Source: Chloroflexota bacterium
GTDB lineage: Bacteria; Chloroflexota; UBA11872
Length of the DNA: 64,000 nucleotides
Assembly (NCBI GenBank): GCA_022825895.1
Contig: JAJDVX010000027.1
Span: 59,528 to 123,527 of the forward strand
Direction of reading: 5' to 3'
Numbering within the stretch: the first letter of the stretch is position 1; each line of letters begins with the position of its first letter. The position numbers and the translations under genes are program-made. Shown here piece by piece: positions 3,871-57,721 of the stretch. The notes beneath the pieces are model-generated. The model saw only the letters and a program-made list of their open reading frames with translations, ran no database searches and had not been told where the DNA came from.

Positions 3871-3974
3871 GACCGCCTGGAACCGACACGGGCGCCGCCT
3901 GTGTTCGAATACTTCCTGATGAACCGGGTCGCTCGCCGTACTGTTAAGCCGTTGACTCCCTCAACCGATTTCGC

Positions 3975-5444
3975 ATGAAGAATTCAGTCCAAATGACACG
4001 TCGACGACTGCTCGCCGCGGCTTTGGGCGGCACCGCGCTTGCGGTTTTGGCCGCTTGCGGCGAGGACACGCCATCGCCGCCGGCCGAGCCGGAAGCCTCA
4101 TTGCCAGTTACACCGTCGACAACCTCGCCAGGGGCGCCGGCGGCGACTCCGGCCGCGGCCGCCGCTGCGCCTCCCTCCGGCCCGCCGGCTGGGACCCGGC
4201 TGCCGGACATCGCGGCCCGCGTGCGGCAAGCGCAAGGGGACGTCGGCATCCTGCCGCCCGCGCCGGCAAGCGCGTCCGACAGCCCGATCGAGGTGCCGGC
4301 CGACGTGCTGGCCGCCAGGGCCGAGCGGCTGATAACCCTCAGCGACCGCGACCAGCTGTCGGCGACCGCCTGGCGCAACATCGGCTGGAAGACCGACTTC
4401 GAGACGTCCCTGGTTAAGTTCGACGAGATCTTCTCCGGCGGCGTGCCGCGCGACGGCATCCCGCCCATCGACGAGCCAAAGTTCACCGACTTCGCGGAAG
4501 CCGTGCAGTTCATCGCTGGTCGCGAGCCGGTGATCGCGCTTCGCGTCAACGGCGAGGCCCGCGCCTATCCGCTGCAGATTCTGACCTTCCACGAGATCGT
4601 GAACGATGTCATCGGCGGCCGGCCGGTCGCCGTCACGTTCTGCCCGTTGTGCAACTCGTCCGTGGTGTTTGACCGCGAAGTATTCGGGTCGGCTCTTCGC
4701 TTCGGCGTTTCCGGCAACCTGCGCAACAGCGACCTCATCATGTGGGACGACGTTACCGAAACCTGGTGGCAGCAGCTGACGGGCGAGGGCCTGGTCGGCC
4801 ACCTGGCCGGAGTGACCCTGACGTTCCTGCCATCGCAGTTGATCGCGTTCGACGAGTTCAAGGCCGCGTTTCCCGACGGCCGGGTCCTATCCCGCGACAC
4901 GGGTTTCACCCGCCCCTATGGCCGCAATCCGTACGGTGGATACGACACCGTCGACGACCGGCCCTTCCAGTCCGATGGCCGTATTGAGGAACGACCCTTC
5001 CTGTTCCAGGGCCGCCTGGATACTCGGCTGCGGGCGACTGAGCGTGTCGTTGCGCTGGAGATCAACGGTGAAGCCGCGGCCTACCCGTTTACCGAGTTGC
5101 GCGGGCAGCGCGTCGTCAACGATGACGTTGGTGGTGAGAAGATCGTCGTGCTCTGGACGCCCAACACGGTGTCGGCGTTGGATAAGACTTCGATTGCCGA
5201 CTCCGGCGCGGTTGGGTCGGGCGTGGCCTACGGACGGGTGGTCGACGGACGCGAACTGACCTTTGCCGTTCAGGACAATGCGTTCAAGGATCAGGAGACA
5301 GGATCGACGTGGGACATCACAGGCCGCGCGCTGAGCGGAGAATTGGCCGGCAAGGAGCTGCCGCCGCTGGTCCACGCCAACCACTTCTGGTTCGCCTGGG
5401 CCGCGTTCAGGCCCGCGACGCGCGTATACGCCGCGAGCTCCTGA
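3975..5444 (+). CDS. DUF3179 family lipoprotein (paralog 1)
   Basis: 489 aa. N-terminal MTRRRLLAAALGGTALAVLAACG is a Tat-like signal with a lipobox. Central GVPRDGIPPIDEPKF...VTFCPLCNSSVVF...WWQQLTGE matches my recollection of the DUF3179 signature. Confidence 0.65.
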   Translation: MKNSVQMTRRRLLAAALGGTALAVLAACGEDTPSPPAEPEASLPVTPSTTSPGAPAATPAAAAAAPPSGPPAGTRLPDIAARVRQAQGDVGILPPAPASASDSPIEVPADVLAARAERLITLSDRDQLSATAWRNIGWKTDFETSLVKFDEIFSGGVPRDGIPPIDEPKFTDFAEAVQFIAGREPVIALRVNGEARAYPLQILTFHEIVNDVIGGRPVAVTFCPLCNSSVVFDREVFGSALRFGVSGNLRNSDLIMWDDVTETWWQQLTGEGLVGHLAGVTLTFLPSQLIAFDEFKAAFPDGRVLSRDTGFTRPYGRNPYGGYDTVDDRPFQSDGRIEERPFLFQGRLDTRLRATERVVALEINGEAAAYPFTELRGQRVVNDDVGGEKIVVLWTPNTVSALDKTSIADSGAVGSGVAYGRVVDGRELTFAVQDNAFKDQETGSTWDITGRALSGELAGKELPPLVHANHFWFAWAAFRPATRVYAASS

Positions 5445-5470
5445 ACACGCGGATCGGCCGCCGGCGGCTG

Positions 5471-6769
5471 ATGGCCCTGGCCTCGGTCGCCGGAATGGCC
5501 CTCGCTGCCTGCTGCGAACCGGCCTCCAGCGCACTGACCGACCAGCCGGAGCGCGTGCCAACCGAAGCGGATCAGCCGCCGTTCGCCGCCGTGGTTCCGC
5601 CCGACACGTCGATTGCCGGCGTCGCCAGCGGGATGCGCGTGCCGCCTGAAGTCATCACAGCTCGCGAGTCGACACTGGTAGCCGCCACTGCGGCCGACCT
5701 GGCGCGCGCCGAGGAATGGCGCCGCCGGGACTGGTCGACCAACTTCCAGATTTCCAGCGTTGCCCTCTCCGAGTTGCAGACCGACGATCTTGAGCGCTTT
5801 CGTGCCGACCCCATTGACACGCCAGACTTCGGGGACATCGACACCGCCAATGCCTTTCTCACGGCGCGCGACCCGGTCGTCGCAGTCGCCGTCGGCGCGG
5901 ACACCCGCGCCTATCCCCTGCGCGTCCTTGTCTGGCACGAGACGGTCAACGACGTGGTTGACGGGAATCCGGTTCTGATCACTTACGACCCCCGCACCAA
6001 TGCGTCGCGGGTCTATGAGCGCCGCCTGCTGGGCGCCGCCATGCGGTTTCGCACCGCTGACGTCCTACACCAGGGCGGGCGTCTGCTCTGGGACTCCTTG
6101 ACCCAAACGTGGTGGCGCCAGTTCACCGGGGAGGCCATCGTTGGCGACTACACCGGCCTTCGCCTTCGGCCGCGTCCCTCCCTGTTGCTGAGCTACGAGG
6201 AGTTTCGACAGTCGTTTCCCCACGGCCAGGTCCTTGGGCCCTCGAGCGGCCCCGATGGCGATGACAGGCCCGACTACGGCGCCACCCGGTATGCGGGCTA
6301 CGACGGCGGCAAGGGTCCGCCCCAGCACGTCGACGGTGTGCCGGATCCCCGATTGGATCCAGCCGCACGCGTGCTGGCGCTGGAGGTCAACGGTGAGCCT
6401 GGGGCCTTCGATTTCAGTCATCTGATCAGCCGGCGTGTCCTGAACGACCGGGTGGGCGGCGAACCGGTCGTGGCTGTTTGGTCGCCCGGCGCTTTGTCAG
6501 TGCTCGACACGCCCAGAATCGCCGACGCGCGCGACGTGGGCATGGCGGCCGCCCACGGCCGCGAGGTCGATGGGCGCTTGCTCACCTTCGAGTTTGCCGA
6601 AGATTCGTTCCGCGACCGCGATACTGGCAGTGTCTGGAATCTGAGCGGACGAGCCATATCAGGCCCGTTGGCGGGCGCGCAGTTGCCGTCGCTCGTCCAC
6701 ACCGCGCCCTACTGGTGGGCCTGGTCGGCTCACAATCCAGCGACGCGATTGGTGACGAACCCTACCTAG
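5471..6769 (+). CDS. DUF3179 family lipoprotein (paralog 2)
   Basis: Clearly paralogous to the upstream gene (ITYDPRTNASRVYE...WWRQFTGE; lipobox MALAACC). The first ATG is at 5471. In-frame upstream codons encode ...RIGRRRLM with no canonical start between the gene-1 stop (5442-5444) and 5471, so the true start is uncertain. Confidence 0.6.
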   Translation: MALASVAGMALAACCEPASSALTDQPERVPTEADQPPFAAVVPPDTSIAGVASGMRVPPEVITARESTLVAATAADLARAEEWRRRDWSTNFQISSVALSELQTDDLERFRADPIDTPDFGDIDTANAFLTARDPVVAVAVGADTRAYPLRVLVWHETVNDVVDGNPVLITYDPRTNASRVYERRLLGAAMRFRTADVLHQGGRLLWDSLTQTWWRQFTGEAIVGDYTGLRLRPRPSLLLSYEEFRQSFPHGQVLGPSSGPDGDDRPDYGATRYAGYDGGKGPPQHVDGVPDPRLDPAARVLALEVNGEPGAFDFSHLISRRVLNDRVGGEPVVAVWSPGALSVLDTPRIADARDVGMAAAHGREVDGRLLTFEFAEDSFRDRDTGSVWNLSGRAISGPLAGAQLPSLVHTAPYWWAWSAHNPATRLVTNPT

Positions 6770-13261: not shown

Positions 13262-13720
13262 CTAGCTGAGGATCCGCAGCACCTCTTCGGGCATCAGCCG
13301 CCCGACGTTGGTGGCGCTGTACACGGCGTGCTCTACCCGGCGGTCCGCGTCCAGCACGAAGGCGCTGGCCTGGTGCGACTGCCGGTCTTCGTTGCGGTAG
13401 GCGCCCAGCGCGTCCACCGAGTCCGGGTAGGCAAGCTCGCCCACCAGCGGTACGTCCACCTGCAGGCGCTCGCGCGTTGCCGCGGCGTCCGCGGCCGAAT
13501 CGACCGACAGCCCCACCACCTGCACGCCCAGCGCGGCAAAGGCGTCCAGCACGTAGCTATAGGCGACCAACTGCCGCCGGCAATGCGATCACCAGTGGCC
13601 GCGGTAGAACAGCAGCACCGCCGGGCCGGCGTCCAGGTCGTCCGGAATGCGGGCCGGTCGGCCGTCGTCCCAGCGGCCCGTCAATTCGGGAAATGTGTCG
13701 CCCACGTTCAGTCGCGTCAT
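13262..13720 (-). CDS. Peroxiredoxin-like (Prx-like2 type) redoxin with in-frame TGA at the first Cys of the WCxxC motif; candidate selenoprotein, alternatively a pseudogene
   Basis: The ORF track splits this into two ORFs, 13589..13840 and 13262..13570. In one frame it reads MTRLNVGDTFPEL...LLFYRGHW-TGA-SHCRRQLVAYS...VYSATNVGRLMPEEVLRILS. Homologs of this subfamily carry FYRG.WCP.C, so the TGA at 13591-13589 sits exactly where the first Cys should be and the second Cys (HC) is kept, giving U-x-x-C. The ATG at 13720 is preceded by GGAGAGG. Confidence 0.5.
13562..13578 (-). promoter_or_regulatory. Candidate bacterial SECIS-like hairpin (GGCGGC-AGUUG-GUCGCC) starting 11 nt 3' of the in-frame UGA
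   Basis: mRNA (minus strand) reads UGA UCG CAU UGC C|GGCGGC AGUUG GUCGCC. This is a 6 bp stem (one G-U pair) with a 5 nt apical loop containing GU at +18/+19, inside the distance window usual for bSECIS. Confidence 0.3.
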
Positions 13721-13867
13721 GCCGGTCATCCTCTCCAGCGCGGCACCCGCAGCGTGGCGGCTCAGGAATCGTCGGTCAACTCTCGTCCGCCCGAGACGCT
13801 CCTCTTCCCGTCGCGGCTCCGGTCTGCCAGAATCGGACAATCCGTCAAGCCTCTGCGAGTGAACCCC

Positions 13868-14209
13868 ATGACGACTGACCAGCCCGCCATCACCGCCTAC
13901 CTCAAGCCCGTCTGCGGTTGGAGCGCCGGCGTCCGCGCCGTGTTCGACAAGTACAGCCTCGACTACGAGGACAAGGACATCATCAACGACGCGACCAACT
14001 ACTACGAGATGGTTGCCCGGAGCGGCCAGCCGCTCTCACCGTGCGTGGTCGTGGATGGGCGCATGCTGGCCGACGTCAGTGGCGAGGAAGTCGAAGCCTG
14101 GCTGGCCGACAAGGGCTACATCCAGCAAAACAACCTTCCCACCCCCGTCCCCATCGACCGCGCCTGCCCCGACGAACTCCACGCGGCGAGCGTCACCTTC
14201 GAGGGATAG
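13868..14209 (+). CDS. Glutaredoxin-like (thioredoxin-fold) small protein
   Basis: 113 aa. ITAYLKPVCGWSAGVRAVFDKYSLDYEDKDI is the typical glutaredoxin-family arrangement (Cys after beta1, then LDY..DI). It lies divergent from the Prx-like gene. Confidence 0.55.
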   Translation: MTTDQPAITAYLKPVCGWSAGVRAVFDKYSLDYEDKDIINDATNYYEMVARSGQPLSPCVVVDGRMLADVSGEEVEAWLADKGYIQQNNLPTPVPIDRACPDELHAASVTFEG

Positions 14210-14301
14210 TTCAAGGCGCCCGATAGGCGTCGTACGAAGCTCTTTGGATCGGGCTGCGGCCGTTCGTCCCGGGTTGGTGCGGCCGTGAAGCAGGTCTTGT
14301 C

Positions 14302-30984: not shown

Positions 30985-31257
30985 CTAGCCTCCCGCCACC
31001 GACGGCACAATCGACACTTCGTCGCCCGGGCCGACTTCGGTGTCGAAGCCCTCGCGGTAACGGATGTCCTCGCCGTCCACGTAGATGTTGACGAAGCGTC
31101 GAAGTTCGCCGTCGTCGTCCAGGATACGTTCGGAGAATCCGGGGTGGGCGGCGTTCAGCTTCTCCACCAGGTCGCCGACGTTCGCGGCGTCGATGTCCAC
31201 GCTGTTCTTGCCGTCCGTCAGGCTGCGGAGCGGGGTAGGGATTCGGACACGGGGCAT
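30985..31257 (-). CDS. MoaD/ThiS/CysO-family sulfur-carrier protein (C-terminal GG)
   Basis: 90 aa beta-grasp protein ending ...SIVPSVAGG. It is 20 nt downstream of the ThrC-like gene on the same strand. Confidence 0.7.
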   Translation of the reverse strand: MPRVRIPTPLRSLTDGKNSVDIDAANVGDLVEKLNAAHPGFSERILDDDGELRRFVNIYVDGEDIRYREGFDTEVGPGDEVSIVPSVAGG

Positions 31258-31277
31258 AAGGGCGTCTCCTGCGCAAT

Positions 31278-32525
31278 CTAGGCTGGCGTCAGCACGCCGC
31301 GGTCGGCCAGCGTCTGCTCAAACGATGTGATGCTCGGTCGGATGTCATAGCGGGCGTCCACACGGCCGTCGATAGCCTCCTGCGTTTTGAGTCCGTTGCC
31401 GGTCACCAGCGCCACCGTCAGGTCGTCCCGAGCGATCACGCCGCGCTCCGCAAGCTTGGCCAATACCGCAATTGTCACGCCGCCCGCCGTCTCCGCAAAA
31501 ATGCCTTCGGTGGAAGCCAGCAGGCGCATGGCGTCCACGATCTCGTCGTCGGTGACGGCTTCGATCACGCCGTCCACTTCCTGTGCCAGCTTCAGCGAAT
31601 AGAACCCATCGGCCGGGTTGCCGATCGCCAGCGACTTGGCCACCGTGTCCGGCTGGCGAACCGGCCGGTACGTGGTCTGGCCGCGGGCGAACGCCTCGGC
31701 CACCGGCGCGCAGCCGTCCGCCTGGGCCCCGTGGATGCGGGTGGACTGGCTGTCCAGCAGCCCCACCTCCACCAACTCCTTCATCGCCTTGCCCATCTTC
31801 GTGTACAGCGAACCGGAGGCGATCGGCGCAACGATGTGGTCCGGCGCCACCCAGCCCAACTGTTCCACCGACTCGAAGGCCAGCGTCTTGGATCCTTCGG
31901 CGTAGTACGGCCGGATGTTGATGTTGCAAAAGGCCCAGTTGTAGAGGTCGGCGATTTCGCTGCACAGCCGGTTCAGTTCGTCGTAGGTGCCTTCCACCGC
32001 CACGATGCCCGCGCCATACACCGCCGCCCCGCGGATCTTGCCCACTTCAAGGTCGGCGGGCATGAATACGTAAGTGGGCATGCCGTGACGCGCCCCGGCG
32101 GCCGACACGGCCCCGGCCAGGTTGCCGGTGGACGCGCAGGCGAAGGTCTCGAACCCGAACTCGCGGGCCTTGGTGATCGCCACCGCCACCACCCGGTCCT
32201 TGAAGGAGTACGTGGGGTTTACGGTGTCGTTCTTGATGTGCAGGTTGGTCAGGCCCAGCCGTTCGCCCAGGTTGTCGGCGCGTTGCAGCGGCGTGAACCC
32301 GACCGGCCATGTCTCGTCCCAGCCCCCCTCCACCGGCAGCAACTCGTGGTAGCGCCACAGCGTGGGCGGCCGGCTGGCGATGGCATCGCGCGAGATGGTC
32401 TCGCGGATGGCCGCGTAGTCGAACTGCGCTTCCAGCGGCCCGAAGTCGAACTCGCAGATGTGCGTGGCTTGCAGCGGATACGCACGGCTGCACTCGCGAC
32501 AGCGAAGCGTCTGAGTCGTGGACAT
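31278..32525 (-). CDS. Threonine-synthase-family PLP enzyme with N-terminal Zn-ribbon (ThrC-like; possibly a carrier-dependent homocysteine synthase)
   Basis: 415 aa. LRCRECSRAY...HICEF is a Cys4-type ribbon. PLP-lysine motif YSFKDRVVA. Fold-type II Gly-rich loop. Confidence 0.75.
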   Translation of the reverse strand: MSTTQTLRCRECSRAYPLQATHICEFDFGPLEAQFDYAAIRETISRDAIASRPPTLWRYHELLPVEGGWDETWPVGFTPLQRADNLGERLGLTNLHIKNDTVNPTYSFKDRVVAVAITKAREFGFETFACASTGNLAGAVSAAGARHGMPTYVFMPADLEVGKIRGAAVYGAGIVAVEGTYDELNRLCSEIADLYNWAFCNINIRPYYAEGSKTLAFESVEQLGWVAPDHIVAPIASGSLYTKMGKAMKELVEVGLLDSQSTRIHGAQADGCAPVAEAFARGQTTYRPVRQPDTVAKSLAIGNPADGFYSLKLAQEVDGVIEAVTDDEIVDAMRLLASTEGIFAETAGGVTIAVLAKLAERGVIARDDLTVALVTGNGLKTQEAIDGRVDARYDIRPSITSFEQTLADRGVLTPA

Positions 32526-33228
32526 GCGGATGATCCTTGGCAGAGGCGCCGACGAAGATGTCAGCGGATGGCGAAGTCCCGAATCGCCGGGTAACCCGGC
32601 TCGCCCGCGTCACGCGCGGGCCCGGCCATCGCCATCGGCCGCTGAGCAGCGTGGGAGAGTTTGCCTCTCACTCCGTCGCAAACCCCTTGGCGCTCCGCGC
32701 CCCGCCCGGGGCGCTGCCTCGCGCCGGTGACCCTCGCATCTCGCAGCTTCCGCTACCGGAATTGGCACCCTCTCGAGCATTCGCTCGAAGGTTGCCCGGC
32801 TTCGTTGGGCCGACTCCCTCCACCAATCTTGATACGAGGTGTGTCACGTCAACCTTGGTGTTCGCGCATCCTAGCACCCGAAACGGCGTCCAGGCGGACG
32901 GCATGGGCCCGTCGAGCGGGAAAAACGCCTCGGACACCCCTCCCAGACGTGCTACGATGGGCGACTGCCTGAAAAGGCATCCGCGCAGTTCGGCGGCGCT
33001 TGATTCATCAGCCGCCCCGGTGGCGCACCGGCCATTATCAGCCGGTCGCGGGCGCGACGGCACCTTAACAGGGGAAGAGTGAGTGCGAGTACTCGCGTCA
33101 TTCCAATGTGTCTGGCGCGACAGTAATCCACGTGATTCGAGGATGACTCGGTGGCTCAGGGCTCCGGTACACCCGGCGCTCTGAAGTAATTGCGATCTGT
33201 ATCACGCCCGCCAGGGCGTGTGTTGAGA

Positions 33229-34752
<1,524 letters not shown>

Positions 34753-34974: not shown

Positions 34975-35330
34975 TGTGCCACCATGTACGGGAGCGTCGG
35001 GCCGGTCAGGCGGCCGCTCCGGCTCACGCCGGAGAGGAAAGTCCGCACTTCACAGAGCGCGGTAGCGGGTAACACCCGTCGCCCGAATCGGCTTACGCCG
35101 GCAAGGGCCGGAACAGGGGCACAGTGACGATGCCCGCGCTCCCACCTCGGGAGCGCGGGAGTGAAACGGCTAACCTCTACCGGAAGCAAGGCCAAGTCGG
35201 GACGCCACCAGGCTGCTCGCCCAGTCCCAGGTAGGCTGCACGAGGCCGGCGGCAACGCCGGTCCCAGATAGATGGCCGCCCACGACAGAATGCGGCTTAT
35301 CGACCGGTCCGACGCTCACCGGTCATCGGG
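34975..35330 (+). ncRNA. rnpB: RNase P RNA (bacterial type A); boundaries approximate
   Basis: P4 5' strand GGAGAGGAAAGTCCGC and 3' strand ACAGAATGCGGCTTATCG (compensatory CCGC/GCGG). GGGTAACACCC and GTGAAACGGC conserved regions are present. P2 pairs GAGCGTCGG (34991-) with CCGACGCTC (-35317). I did not resolve P1. Confidence 0.8.
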
Positions 35331-35440: not shown

Positions 35441-35515
<75 letters not shown>

Positions 35516-36357: not shown

Positions 36358-37347
36358 CTAGGTCGCTGCCGTTAACTCAACTGGATAAATCGGCGTGTCT
36401 TTACCGTAGTGCAATCGCAGCGCCCAGTCCCAGATGCTGAAGTACGGCACCGGCGTCAGCGTCTCGCTGGCCAGCGATCCGGATATCGCCTTTCCGCTCA
36501 ACCCGTCCCAGCGGCTGCCGGTTTCCCGGTCGATGAGGTCGGTTCCGTCGGCGTGGAAGGTGAGGCGACGTCCGTCGACCCGCGCTTGGTAGGTGCGCAC
36601 CAGCCGGCTCTCGGCGTCCGCAAAGGCCACCACCGGCGTGTTGCCAACCACCGCCTGCTGTACGCCGAGTCGCGCCGTCTCGTCGAAGTAGAACCCGGCC
36701 CCCGCGCCTTCGATGTCGACTCCGATGACCCAGATGTCTCTGGGCTGGCTCTGAATGTGAAAGGCGCTGTTGGGCGCGCCAACGGACAGGCGCTGCTTCA
36801 GGACGAGCGTGGTCGGATGCTGCTCGAGCCAGGAGCCCCAGGGCGTCAGTGAAGCGACAATCGGCCTGAGCCGCGCGCCGTCGAGTGGGCCGTCCAGCGC
36901 CTCGCCGAATACCTGGCTCCAGATGCTGCCGGTCTCGTGGTCCCACCAGGTCTGGGCGCCCTTGTAGAGCGCGCCTTGCACGCCCAGGGTCAGGGTTTGC
37001 CCCTCCCACACCCGTTCAAAGACCAGCCCGCTGTAGCACAGCGGGCACCAGGTAATCGCCACCGGCACGCCGCCCACCACGTCGTTCACGATCTCGTAGC
37101 TCACCAGCGGCTCGATGGGATAGGCGCGGGCGTCGCCGTTGATCTCCACCGCCAGCACCATCTCGTGCGGCTTCAGGCTGATGTTGTCAGGCGTGGTCAG
37201 ACTCGGGTTGTAGATCGGCTGGATGGCGTCCCGCAATATCCGCACGTCCCAGCGCAACTCGTACGCCGTCGACCGCTGCGGCAGGAACAGCAGCGCTCCA
37301 ATCACCGCTGCCATGGCCAGTACGCCAAGCACATGCTGTCGTCTCAT
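36358..37347 (-). CDS. DUF3179 family protein (paralog 3; signal-anchored)
   Basis: 329 aa. Shares VAITWCPLCYSGLVF...TWWDHETGS with the two paralogs at 3975-6769. N-terminal hydrophobic anchor. Confidence 0.65.
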   Translation of the reverse strand: MRRQHVLGVLAMAAVIGALLFLPQRSTAYELRWDVRILRDAIQPIYNPSLTTPDNISLKPHEMVLAVEINGDARAYPIEPLVSYEIVNDVVGGVPVAITWCPLCYSGLVFERVWEGQTLTLGVQGALYKGAQTWWDHETGSIWSQVFGEALDGPLDGARLRPIVASLTPWGSWLEQHPTTLVLKQRLSVGAPNSAFHIQSQPRDIWVIGVDIEGAGAGFYFDETARLGVQQAVVGNTPVVAFADAESRLVRTYQARVDGRRLTFHADGTDLIDRETGSRWDGLSGKAISGSLASETLTPVPYFSIWDWALRLHYGKDTPIYPVELTAAT

Positions 37348-37394
37348 GCCACGATCGTAGACGGAAGAAATTCAAGCGGGCCTGACGCGAGCTC

Positions 37395-56105: not shown

Positions 56106-56695
56106 CCGGCTTCCACTTTCCCTTGCATCACATTTGGAAGGGCCGACTCCTACTAATGCAAATGGCGCAGCAAGGCTCCCGGCCAACCAAGAGGCGTGGC
56201 TCTCGTCCCGGTGCGCCGCACTTTTTTGGTGGACCGCCGTCGCCGGCGTGCGCGACAACGCGGAACTCATAGCCCGTGTCCGAGGTCTTCGCGGCCGAGT
56301 CTCACCAGGAATGCCGAACACTGCCCTCTCCCCTGACGGGGAAAGTCTGGCCCCTCACCGGATGAGAGGGCGCAGACAAGGACGCCTGCGCCCTTTCCGT
56401 CAACCGAATCCGCGAGGAGACCTCCCACCGGAAGGTTCGCAGTAAAGCCCCCATGGCCTACCTAAGACAGCCTGCGATTGCTCGCACCCGTGTTTTCGCG
56501 GGTCAGAGCCGCAGTTTGCAGCCAGCAGAGGCGAACGGAATTCGGGCGGGCAGATTCCGTGAGTTGTCGATCGGGGAATCGGAAAGCCAGTTGCGACCGT
56601 CGTTCGGGCATTTCCGGCGCACCCCGTCAACACGAGGTTCTTCTGATACGCTCGACCGAAGCACGCGTGATAGAGGCCAGTCCTAGATCAGTTCG

Positions 56696-57721
56696 ATGTC
56701 CGTCAAGCTTTCCGATGTTCTGAAGGACGCGGATAAATCTTCCGGAGTCGATTCCTCCCTCAGCGAATACAAAGCGCACTTCAGGAACGCCGAGCGCGGT
56801 GAATCGGACGACGAGAAGAGCGAGCACCAGACGGTCAACAATCTCTACTACGACCTGGTTACCGACTTTTTCGAGTACGGATGGGGCAAGTCGTTTCACT
56901 TTGCCCCGCGGGTCCCTGGCGAGAGCTTCAAGGCTTCGCTGGCGCGCCACGAGCACTACATGGCGCACACCCTGGGGCTCAGGCCCGGGATGGTGGTGGC
57001 CGACATCGGGTGTGGCGTGGGCGGACCGCTCATGGAGATTGCCCGGTTTTCCGGCGCAAAGATCGTTGGCGTCAACAGCAATGCCTATCAGCTCGAACGC
57101 GCCCGGAAACTGACACGCGAGGCGAAGCTAGCGGACCTTGCGGACTTTATTCACTGCGACTTTCTGAGTGTTGAGGCTCCGGATGAATCGTTCGACGCGG
57201 CCTACTCCATCGAGGCATCGTGCTGTGCACCGGACAAAGTCAGCATCTACCGCGAGATTTACCGGCTGCTAAAGCCTGGCGCCTGCTTTGGCGCGTATGA
57301 GTACTGCATGACTGAGCGATTCGACGCAAGCAATCCCCACCACCTCAGGATTAAGGCCGACATTCAGTTGGGCGGTGGGCTGCTCATCATCGACGACTAC
57401 CAGACCGTGGATGACGCGCTTCGAACCGTTGGCTTCGAAGTGTTGGAGACACGGGATCTGACGCTGCAGGCAGGTCCGTCAATCCCCTGGTATCAGCCGC
57501 TGGCCGGCTCGGGTATCTCGTTCGCCAGCTTTCGCAGTTCGCGGATCGGGCGCTCGGTGACGCACGGCACGCTGCGAGTGCTCGAAGCGCTGCGCATCGT
57601 GCCGCAGGGATCGGTTCGCGTGGCGGACACCCTGAATCTCTGCGCGGCAGCCATGGCCGAGGCGGGCCGGCTGGAGATCTTTACGCCGATGTATTTCGTC
57701 CACGCCCGAAAGCCCGCGTAG
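56696..57721 (+). CDS. Sterol 24-C-methyltransferase (ERG6/SMT)-like SAM-dependent methyltransferase
   Basis: 341 aa. YYDLVTDFFEYGWGKSFHFAP is SMT region I (YEYGWGxSFHF). SAM motif I VADIGCGVGGP. Post-I IVGVNSN. GC ~56% versus ~70% genome background. Confidence 0.7.
   Translation: MSVKLSDVLKDADKSSGVDSSLSEYKAHFRNAERGESDDEKSEHQTVNNLYYDLVTDFFEYGWGKSFHFAPRVPGESFKASLARHEHYMAHTLGLRPGMVVADIGCGVGGPLMEIARFSGAKIVGVNSNAYQLERARKLTREAKLADLADFIHCDFLSVEAPDESFDAAYSIEASCCAPDKVSIYREIYRLLKPGACFGAYEYCMTERFDASNPHHLRIKADIQLGGGLLIIDDYQTVDDALRTVGFEVLETRDLTLQAGPSIPWYQPLAGSGISFASFRSSRIGRSVTHGTLRVLEALRIVPQGSVRVADTLNLCAAAMAEAGRLEIFTPMYFVHARKPA

Follow-up and report, generated by a model that had tools for sequence, protein, structure and literature searches.

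The first predictions of Prx-like 1 selenoproteins (Prx-like thiol:disulfide oxidoreductases) were made in Geobacter and deltaproteobacteria; these proteins are abundant in the Sargasso Sea and GOS metagenomes (PMC1088965, PMC2398784, PMC9312934, PMC13188914), and exchange of Cys and Sec at the first residue of the redox motif is an established pattern in the family (PMC1088965, PMC2398784). Membership can be defined by a domain plus a motif, namely pfam00578 together with UxxC or UxxU (PMC9312934). By this definition, a gene that we describe here from a sponge-associated Chloroflexota bacterium is predicted to belong to the same Prx-like 1/Prx-like thiol:disulfide oxidoreductase selenoproteins already known from marine metagenomes. 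We put the probability that the gene is intact and encodes a 152-residue Prx-like UxxC selenoprotein with an AhpC/TSA fold at about 0.9. Its features within the window, i.e., the whole 64-kb stretch of DNA that was analyzed, are given in Table 1.

The locus resembles Prx-like 1 in its AhpC/TSA domain (pfam00578), in a UxxC motif of the thioredoxin type where peroxiredoxins have TxxC/TxxU, in having Cys homologs, in a SECIS-type hairpin after the UGA, in its marine habitat, and in a function that is likewise only predicted. It differs in its host, a sponge-associated Chloroflexota bacterium, and in that a divergent glutaredoxin-like gene with a CGWS motif invariably accompanies it throughout the clade. 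The redox motif reads W-U-S-H-C here, W-U-(P/A)-Y-C in distant Sec-form relatives, and mostly W-C-P-x-C in Cys forms. The preliminary description had named the family Prx-like2; the label is loose, because the best Pfam matches are PF00578 and PF08534, which correspond to Prx-like 1 in the literature.

PrxU (TxxU, NCBIfam NF040737) is likewise a selenoprotein with an AhpC/TSA fold and a retained catalytic Arg, but Sec replaces the peroxidatic Cys in PrxU, whereas here the Cys is kept and Sec takes the Thr position three residues before it. Identity with PrxU was rejected on this ground and on its score (20.3 bits; cutoff, 270). The SelL-related redox protein model (NF040769) was also rejected, with a partial match over residues 9-92 (26.3 bits; cutoff, 120).

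Table 1. Features of the predicted selenoprotein locus (positions are those of the window)
Feature	Position	Strand	Details and basis
Complete selenoprotein gene (predicted)	13262..13720	minus	153 codons = 152 aa + TAG; ATG at 13720-13718, TAG at 13264-13262
Shine-Dalgarno-like GGAGAGG	13730..13736	minus	9 nt 5' of ATG; direct reading
In-frame TGA (codon 44), predicted to encode selenocysteine	13589..13591	minus	ortholog conservation and Cys in homologs
Cys47 codon TGC, second UxxC residue	13580..13582	minus	aligned with peroxidatic Cys of peroxiredoxins
SECIS-like hairpin, 17 nt	13562..13578	minus	5' arm GGCGGC 13578-13573, loop AGUUG 13572-13568, 3' arm GUCGCC 13567-13562; overlaps codons R48-A53; RNAalifold consensus, covariation
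Arg141 codon, NVGRLMPEEV motif	13298..13300	minus	aligned with catalytic Arg of peroxiredoxins (GRL..E.LR)
Glutaredoxin-like gene, 113 aa, C-G-W-S motif	13868..14209	plus	PF00462, 2.9e-9

One reading frame across the in-frame TGA

Direct reading of the minus-strand frame between the ATG and the TAG reveals a single internal stop, the TGA at codon 44 (AVLLFYRGHW-[TGA]-SHCRRQLVAY). Without exception, the 42 distinct orthologous sequences carry this TGA (amino acid identity, 53-99%). They derive from Chloroflexota MAGs of 35 GTDB species and from metagenome contigs, and the TGA turns up in over 45 independent assemblies, closed long-read chromosomes among them. Closed chromosomes with an ortholog include OZ244802.1 (98% identity over the part after the TGA), OZ242271.1, OY764080.1, OZ253587.1, OY282448.1, and OZ244806.1. 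The full-length orthologs (41/41) all have 153 codons, the identical ATG start, and zero indels. Furthermore, dN/dS values of 0.16-0.46 before the TGA and 0.10-0.65 after it, with dS saturated or nearly so, indicate purifying selection on both halves in one frame. The preliminary description had read the two ORFs flanking the TGA as one frame with both halves conserved and with a good ribosome binding site and start, and our data bear this out on every point.

With respect to the residue encoded at codon 44, we observe Cys at exactly this position in full-length homologs (P0020, P0026, P0027, P0029, P0033, P0043, and P0045), which share the motif FYRG.WC(P/S/R).C..QL. The DNA of one homolog, L062, has TGC at the codon aligned to the Sec UGA. 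TGC or TGT occurs at codon 44 in none of the orthologs within the clade, and four distant, unrelated family members (35-42% identity) carry TGA there as well. The earlier proposal that the TGA takes the place of the first redox Cys thus agrees with the homologs, and Cys and Sec forms alternate at this site, with Cys in the full-length homologs and TGA in the clade orthologs and the four distant relatives.

TGA also serves as an ordinary stop in the window, where it ends 14 of 29 confident genes. Ordinary gene junctions aside, the codon-44 TGA is the only one in the 64 kb with coding-like sequence on both sides, and beyond such junctions a search of the window and of all fetched flanks gave no other in-frame TGA candidates. 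Judged from these comparisons, the codon-44 TGA very probably encodes selenocysteine.

A SECIS-like hairpin downstream of the TGA

Bacterial SECIS elements feature a small apical loop with a conserved G at a short fixed distance from the UGA (PMC1088965), and a stem-loop of this kind, with a small loop and a conserved G, directly follows the UGA here. It starts at the 11th nucleotide after the TGA and places the loop G at position 21 and the loop U at position 22, numbering from the U of UGA. The hairpin is the one that had been pointed out beforehand, with GU in its loop, and we find it to be both conserved and covarying. The region was aligned for 34 clade sequences (A2) and four distant relatives (A3), 38 distinct sequences in total. 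Among the clade sequences, 97% of cells are paired, and the observed covariation was matched by 0 of 500 shuffles, a control that is not to be read as a probability. Once the distant relatives are added, four of the six pairs show two-sided changes (G-C/A-U; G-C/C-G/U-A; G-C/A-U; G-C/G-U/A-U), a level reached by 3 of 500 shuffles, and covariation scores 0.289 versus 0.137. Slid registers of the hairpin all collapse. Part of the covariation is inherited within the clade, the 11 C-G cases probably amounting to one or two events, and two orthologs (L039 and L047) accommodate the hairpin only imperfectly or after a register shift.

The loop reads AGUU(G/A) in all 38 sequences except that of one metagenome contig, L043. 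Codon usage follows suit: Gln50 is encoded by CAG in 41/41 sequences and Leu51 by UUR in 41/41, versus 8.4% of Leu codons in the genes of the window, and synonymous divergence is 0-0.14 over the hairpin versus 0.32-0.87 in the flanks in the same comparisons. Since Gln-Leu is kept in the Cys-form proteins too, conservation of the loop is partly a protein constraint. The hairpin is absent from L062, the sole Cys-codon homolog with DNA and therefore a single-sequence control.

Taken alone, the hairpin is weak evidence and its significance is comparative only: shuffled versions of the 71-nt region fold just as well (z = -0.06), and in the window, which has 66% GC, 3.9% of ordinary codons are followed by a comparable hairpin. 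In the minimum free energy fold of the window sequence, a rival hairpin forms instead, AUUGCC-GGC-GGCAGU, whose lower stem takes in the UGA. We rejected this fold as a functional element: none of its pairs shows two-sided changes in either alignment, and it is broken by L007-type G-to-A changes and by A33 variants, which preserve the SECIS-like hairpin (hairpin B). Its conservation is due to the Cys, Gln, and Leu codons. No Rfam family recognizes the hairpin, and a permissive scan of the recoding region returned chance matches only.

Compared with the fdhF-type SECIS of Escherichia coli, the hairpin is similar in being a 17-nt stem-loop within the coding sequence after the UGA with G and U in a small loop, and different in its perfect, G+C-rich 6-bp stem without a bulged U and in its AGUUG loop. 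An 11-nt spacing from the UGA and loop contacts through G23/U24 in fdhF-type SECIS were reportedly described by Liu et al. in 1998 and by Huttenhofer and Bock. Our literature check on the 11-nt rule found only a statement on size, namely that the minimal SelB-binding upper stem-loop has 17 nt (PMC11431864), the same length as the hairpin here.

Proposed decoding of UGA-44 and alternative readings

We propose that a ribosome arriving at UGA-44 would meet the stem-loop with its AGUUG loop presented, and that the stem-loop would recruit SelB and Sec-tRNA(Sec), so that Sec is inserted instead of termination taking place. Both the SelB dependence and the incorporation of selenium at UGA-44 are what we infer from the sequence comparisons. 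Genes for Sec decoding were not found near the locus: ARAGORN detected no tRNA-Sec in the window and 31 loci, the Rfam search at gathering threshold returned nothing for Sec machinery, Pfam identified none among about 30 genes of the window, and tblastn searches of the window and 49 loci with the E. coli proteins SelA, SelB, and SelD gave no selA, selB, or selD. Records with near-identical proteins led to unrelated ENA metagenome scaffolds and to none of the published bins known to have SelA, SelB, and SelD.

This lack of Sec machinery in the window and fetched flanks favors a reading in which the UGA is read through without Sec, a near-cognate or suppressor tRNA inserting Trp, Cys, or Gly with stimulation by the hairpin and independently of SelB. 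Downstream structures do stimulate read-through in other systems. We nevertheless regard such decoding as improbable. The residue concerned is the nucleophilic first position of CxxC, where Cys/Sec exchange is established in this family, and the hairpin matches bacterial SECIS elements in size, spacing, and G/U loop (PMC1088965, PMC11431864). If Cys were wanted, TGC would be simpler, yet TGA has been kept across deep divergence. Moreover, SelA, SelB, and SelD were reported in every mapped Aplysina Chloroflexi bin (Slaby et al. 2017, PMC5649159, Table S4), and BSepDB (PMC13326102) includes Chloroflexota/Dehalococcoidia MAGs for which 46-49 selenoproteins are recorded.

Less probable still is that the TGA is a real stop, giving a 43-aa peptide and a separate 102-aa piece initiated at TTG-51, with the hairpin in a coupling or regulatory role. 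Codon 51 is indeed kept as TTG or TTA, and gene callers choose it as a start in many lineages. However, there is no Shine-Dalgarno sequence ahead of TTG-51, and 7 of the 41 orthologs have TTA, which does not belong to the start codons of table 11. A stop at the TGA would also cut the thioredoxin fold inside its active site, with loss of the first redox residue. The homologs are one chain with Cys at the position of codon 44, and the 43 upstream codons, which are conserved, supply the N-terminal beta-strands.

That the locus is a pseudogene or a sequencing or assembly error, i.e., a CxxC Prx-like gene with a nonsense change from TGC or TGT to TGA, is next to negligible and was effectively refuted as an alternative of the preliminary description by the comparative data, since the same TGA stands in so many independent assemblies and in orthologs that are not neutral and lack frameshifts, even if gene callers everywhere give two ORFs and decayed copies or errors do occur, as in L043, which has a second stop besides the TGA (a premature TAG at Leu51) and is probably a decayed copy.

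Active site and the glutaredoxin-like neighbor

Read through codon 44 with Sec, the joined protein matches PF00578 (AhpC-TSA) over residues 6-131 (7.5e-18; 65 bits versus a cutoff of 26) as well as PF08534 (Redoxin), and is a full-length AhpC/TSA fold. The solved structures most similar by sequence are of the Prx6 type (phmmer). In agreement with this, the nearest structures to an AF2 model of a Cys homolog (pLDDT, 94.7) are Bcp4, AhpC2, and Prx6 (TM, 0.85-0.88), and ResA and a Bacillus thiol-disulfide oxidoreductase are also significant neighbors (TM, 0.73-0.76). The W-[C/U]-x-x-C motif caps the N terminus of the first helix in this model. Such a motif at this cap is what the protein has in common with thioredoxin (WCGPC) and ResA/TlpA; it differs from them in being closer to peroxiredoxins in sequence and structure and in retaining the peroxiredoxin Arg and GRLxxExLR.

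In alignments with solved peroxiredoxin structures (phmmer), U44 of the redox motif W-U44-S-H-C47 falls on the Thr of TxxC, and Cys47, which is nearly invariant in the Cys-form family alignment, on the peroxidatic position, consistent with the kept second Cys and the U-x-x-C motif proposed at the outset. Arg141 lies in the invariant motif NVGRLMPEEV and does not vary in alignment A1 or among the Cys forms (R140 of P0020), and its GRL aligns with the GR(L/N) Arg of peroxiredoxins. The canonical peroxiredoxin motif PxxxT/SxxC itself is not present, with Sec in place of Thr and Arg in place of Pro (R-G-H-W-U-S-H-C), and only C47 kept.

The glutaredoxin-like gene lies divergently adjacent, as had been noted before. 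It adjoins the predicted selenoprotein gene and encodes CGWS in every clade member checked, the most divergent (L039 and L048) included, and was absent beside the distant relatives. The redox center would be the thioredoxin-like W-U-x-x-C at the N terminus of the first helix. As likely chemistry, a Sec44-Cys47 selenenylsulfide/selenol-thiol couple would reduce a peroxide or disulfide substrate and would then be re-reduced by a thiol partner, for which the CGWS neighbor is the obvious candidate.

A more specific reading, which we find rather doubtful, is that of a hybrid peroxidase in which Sec stands in for the activating Thr, Cys and Arg are kept, and the intramolecular Se-S switch is recycled by the CGWS monothiol-type glutaredoxin-like protein as a dedicated partner inherited along with it, in a two-gene module specific to sponge-symbiotic Chloroflexota. 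If true, this would make the pair a selenium-dependent antioxidant module rather than a generic thiol-disulfide oxidoreductase, and in such a reading the CAG-UUG (Gln-Leu) of the SECIS loop would be fixed across the whole family.

Our understanding of selenocysteine decoding itself is unchanged by this gene. What it does reveal is a recurrent annotation error, in which dozens of Chloroflexota MAGs, and closed chromosomes too, record a 43-aa ORF and a 102-aa "AhpC" fragment. Because a predicted 152-aa selenoprotein is entered as two pieces, it is undercounted when redox genes or selenium use in sponge symbionts are catalogued. For a phylum in which early surveys saw few such genes, this is a further well-supported selenoprotein, one whose SECIS is backed by covariation, and it fits the published enrichment of SelA and SelB in sponge symbionts. 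Finally, the function of the family has been "predicted" since 2004, and both the pairing with the CGWS gene and the putative Sec at the peroxiredoxin Thr position provide testable hypotheses on what these proteins may do.

A peroxiredoxin-like frame and its internal TGA

As the preliminary description had it, the minus-strand gene reads as a single peroxiredoxin-like frame split by one TGA, with a divergent glutaredoxin-like (Grx-like) neighbour. With Cys placed at codon 44, the joined protein carries a full-length AhpC/TSA domain (PF00578, 7.5e-18, residues 6-131) and a second domain match to PF08534 (3.2e-9). TGA terminates 14 of the 29 confident genes of the window (66.5% G+C), indicating that the genetic code is standard. 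Scanning the window for TGA codons with at least 35 stop-free codons on each side and coding-type GC3/GC2 returned three sites: TGA-44 and two ordinary gene junctions, at the pheS stop/pheT start and at the end of an octopine-dehydrogenase-like gene.

Features of the candidate selenoprotein locus
Feature	Position	Strand	Remark
Peroxiredoxin-like ORF, 153 codons	ATG 13720-13718 to TAG 13264-13262	-	sequence reading
GGAGAGG	9 nt upstream of ATG 13720-13718	-	sequence reading
TGA, codon 44, sole internal stop	13591-13589	-	context LLFYRGHW-[TGA]-SHCRRQL
Hairpin B, GGCGGC-AGUUG-GUCGCC	13578-13562	-	begins at 11th nt past TGA
Hairpin A, AUUGCC-GGC-GGCAGU		-	MFE fold; extendable to take in UGA
Glutaredoxin-family gene, divergent	13868-14209	+	PF00462, 2.9e-9

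Protein searches yielded almost only 102-aa proteins corresponding to the post-TGA part and 83-aa N-terminal pieces, indicating that gene callers split this gene everywhere. Ortholog DNA was taken from the encoding contigs, from metagenome contigs and from a scan that covered each GTDB species with one genome. The species-level scan gave 35 loci, labelled Chloroflexota MAGs with a single exception; many are of sponge-study origin and several lie on closed 3.0-3.8 Mb chromosomes. Gene order is conserved, with pheS-pheT, the Grx-like gene (opposite strand) and the selenoprotein gene followed by Ldh and HpcH (opposite strand).

The orthologs exclude both a pseudogene and a sequencing error as explanations of TGA-44. 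In each of the 42 distinct orthologous sequences, the most divergent at 53% amino-acid identity, TGA occupies the identical codon, and all 41 full-length copies have exactly 153 codons, the same ATG and no indels. Furthermore, Nei-Gojobori dN/dS ranges from 0.16 to 0.46 upstream of the TGA (codons 2-43) and from 0.10 to 0.65 downstream of it (codons 54-152), dS being saturated or close to it, which indicates that both halves are translated in one frame, as had been proposed from their joint conservation. In one metagenome contig (L043, PVBE010156445.1), Leu51 has changed from TTG to TAG, a second stop within the hairpin loop that may reflect a decayed copy or a sequencing error.

An 89%-identical ortholog with the same synteny (JAKZSW010000072.1) is filed under a 'Candidatus Tectimicrobiota' MAG, all other carriers being Chloroflexota, and this contig is probably mis-binned. 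Between pheT and the Grx-like gene, two orthologous loci carry a GmrSD-type (type IV restriction) gene (L002, 7116-9224; L003, 7211-8923) that is absent from the corresponding spot in the window (14210-14301) and in the orthologous locus L001; this gap is a small variable defence islet in some relatives.

Cysteine and selenocysteine across the family

With the post-TGA segment as query, an exhaustive HMMER search across 1.84 billion representatives returned 80 relatives. Those beyond the clade of orthologs (30-44% identity) fall into a full-length class (~150-175 aa) with the motif FYRG.WC(P/S/R).C..QL and a short class (~100-114 aa) whose first residue is the Leu of the QL dipeptide. All four short relatives with fetched DNA (L057, L058, L059 and L060/L061) have TGA at the same codon, within W-U-(A/P)-Y-C. 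With Cys in the full-length homologs and TGA in the clade and these distant relatives, Sec and Cys alternate at this exact position family-wide, which is the pattern anticipated by the preliminary description.

Across the aligned Cys forms there is little or no variation at the second Cys, at the Gln and at the Arg of the C-terminal GRL motif; the first motif position is mostly C, with S in two members. These two full-length homologs (P0052 and P0034) read W-S-x-x-C, with a Ser that mimics the Ser/Thr of true peroxiredoxins; C, U and S are thus all tolerated at this position, and the second Cys and the Arg are fixed. The distant Sec-form gene in L058 (1-6330 of ERZ25039483 contig_4927; W-U-P-Y-C) lies between VKOR and two pyridine-nucleotide disulfide oxidoreductase genes, with a CsoR-type repressor, a MerT-like gene and a second AhpC/TSA gene nearby, a different, metal/redox-flavoured setting for the same family.

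Best phmmer matches among PDB sequences are Prx6-type peroxiredoxins (5xbs, 3.7e-9). Here F-YRGHW[U]SHCRRQLV lies opposite FSHPADFTPVCTTEFV, which places Sec44 on the conserved Thr of the peroxiredoxin TxxC and Cys47 on the peroxidatic Cys, and NVGRLMPEEVLRIL lies opposite ELGRLV-DEILRIV, so that the catalytic Arg is kept (Arg141, invariant). In an AlphaFold2 model (pLDDT 94.7) of P0020, a Cys homolog, the first Cys caps the first long helix at its N-terminus. Among solved folds, those closest to the model are peroxiredoxins (Bcp4, TM 0.88; AhpC2; Prx6); ResA and other CxxC thiol-disulfide oxidoreductases are somewhat more distant (TM 0.73-0.76).

The window protein is neither a TxxU Sec-peroxiredoxin nor a canonical peroxiredoxin, and no NCBIfam model reached its cutoff for the joined protein (PrxU, 20 vs 270; SelL-related, 26 vs 120). 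Prx-like 1 (pfam00578, UxxC) accounted for 225 selenoprotein sequences in GOS (PMC2398784), and a 'Prx-like thiol:disulfide oxidoreductase' is defined by pfam00578 with UxxC/UxxU (reviews PMC9312934, PMC13188914). The window gene shows all tested features of this definition and is placed in the family by domain and motif.

The hairpin downstream of the UGA

The SECIS-type hairpin was correctly located by the preliminary description (hairpin B) and is mutually exclusive with the competing hairpin A. Alone it is unremarkable: dinucleotide shuffles of the 71-nt region fold just as well (z = -0.06), and 3.9% of ordinary codons in window genes have a hairpin of similar quality and position after them; the argument must therefore rest on comparative evidence.

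Over 34 distinct clade sequences, the RNAalifold consensus is hairpin B, 97% paired, with C-G in place of G-C at one pair in 11 sequences and a G-C/G-U/A-U mix at a second pair; its covariation score is reached by 0 of 500 column shuffles, and none of the slid registers holds up. Stem sequences differ in the four distant relatives (GUCGGC/GCCGAC, GUCAGC/GCUGAC, UUCGGC/GCCGAU and AUCGGC/GCCGAU), which retain the 10-nt spacer, the 6-bp stem length and the AGUUG loop. In a 17-sequence alignment, both sides change at 4 of 6 pairs (matched by 3 of 500 shuffles), with a covariation score of 0.289, compared with 0.137 +/- 0.026 for the shuffles (0 of 500 reach it); part of the covariation is inherited within clades. 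Hairpin A has no pair with changes on both sides in either set. The proposed hairpin is thus conserved, with covariation that includes the distant relatives.

Codon use follows the same stretch: Gln50 is CAG and Leu51 is UUG/UUA in 41 of 41 sequences, against 8.4% UUR among Leu codons of window genes, Gln-Leu being also conserved at the protein level. Synonymous divergence is 0-0.14 over codons 45-53 versus 0.32-0.87 in the flanks (several comparisons). The sole Cys-codon homolog with DNA (L062, TGC; n = 1) lacks both the helix and the AGUUG loop. Two loci (L039 and L047) have hairpin B only in shifted or imperfect register, and no Rfam family matches the element. The minimal E. coli SECIS element must lie 11 nt from the UGA, a spacing equal to that of hairpin B; at such a distance, a ribosome pausing on the UGA would unwind hairpin A. 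At 17 nt, hairpin B has the length of the minimal SelB-binding upper stem-loop (PMC11431864).

Predicted recoding and genomic setting

SelB-dependent recoding of UGA-44, directed by the 17-nt hairpin, is a well-supported prediction from these comparisons. We infer that the W-U-x-x-C redox centre would cycle between selenol/thiol and a Sec44-Cys47 selenenylsulfide, reducing a peroxide or a disulfide, with the divergent CGWS Grx-like protein as plausible reductant. The Grx-like gene adjoins the selenoprotein gene in every clade member examined, and its product (62-90% identity) is more conserved than the selenoprotein itself; in the distant relatives examined it is not adjacent, the neighbours being instead VKOR, pyridine-nucleotide disulfide oxidoreductases, nitroreductase or MoeA. 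Besides CGWS, the Grx-like protein has two more conserved Cys (in SPCVV and D.xC.DE) and a conserved C-terminal extension of ~35 aa; it matches the 'Uxx-star glutaredoxin-like (seleno)protein' model weakly (23.8 bits vs cutoff 66).

No tRNA-Sec, selA, selB or selD was found within the 64-kb window or fetched flanks. Indirect support for such machinery comes from published genomes: SelA and SelB are reported in most sponge-symbiont bins (Slaby et al. 2017, PMC5649159), with SelA, SelB and SelD in SAR202 bins 16, 22, 87, 90 and 127, Chloroflexia bins 20 and 125 and Caldilineae bins 5 and 34 (Table S4 therein); one such SAR202 bin (3.7 Mb, 65.6% G+C) resembles the window. BSepDB holds Chloroflexota/Dehalococcoidia MAGs with 46-49 selenoproteins (PMC13326102).

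Elsewhere in the window, a complete copy of the 16S rRNA gene (33231-34751, +) has RNase P RNA (34998-35315) and tRNA-Met (35441-35515) downstream of it in place of 23S/5S, and there is no 23S anywhere in the 64 kb, so that the rRNA genes are seemingly unlinked. A SAM riboswitch (32733-32838, -; 70 bits) upstream of a PLP-dependent PALP enzyme gene (31278-32609) and a ThiS-family small protein gene (30985-31317, -) together look like a sulfur-carrier type Cys/Met biosynthesis operon (30985-32838, -). Three DUF3179 paralogs are present, one alone (36358-37371, -) and two in tandem (3948-6769, +) beside an ABC transporter and gamma-glutamyltranspeptidase, the pair being conserved in relatives. 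A methyltransferase gene (56687-57721, +) with Sterol_MT_C (PF08498, 4e-23) and SAM-methyltransferase domains is sterol-methyltransferase-like; it probably belongs to a sponge symbiont and may be relevant to the sponge sterol biomarker debate.

Ortholog TGA conservation, Cys/Sec alternation and the covarying hairpin support the original reading of a genuine selenoprotein, and from these sequences we put the probability that UGA-44 encodes Sec at about 0.9. The window gene is a genuine, unannotated member of a known, function-unproven selenoprotein family in sponge-associated Chloroflexota, a finding that is no surprise to the specialist and is useful for annotation and for the selenium biology of sponge symbionts.
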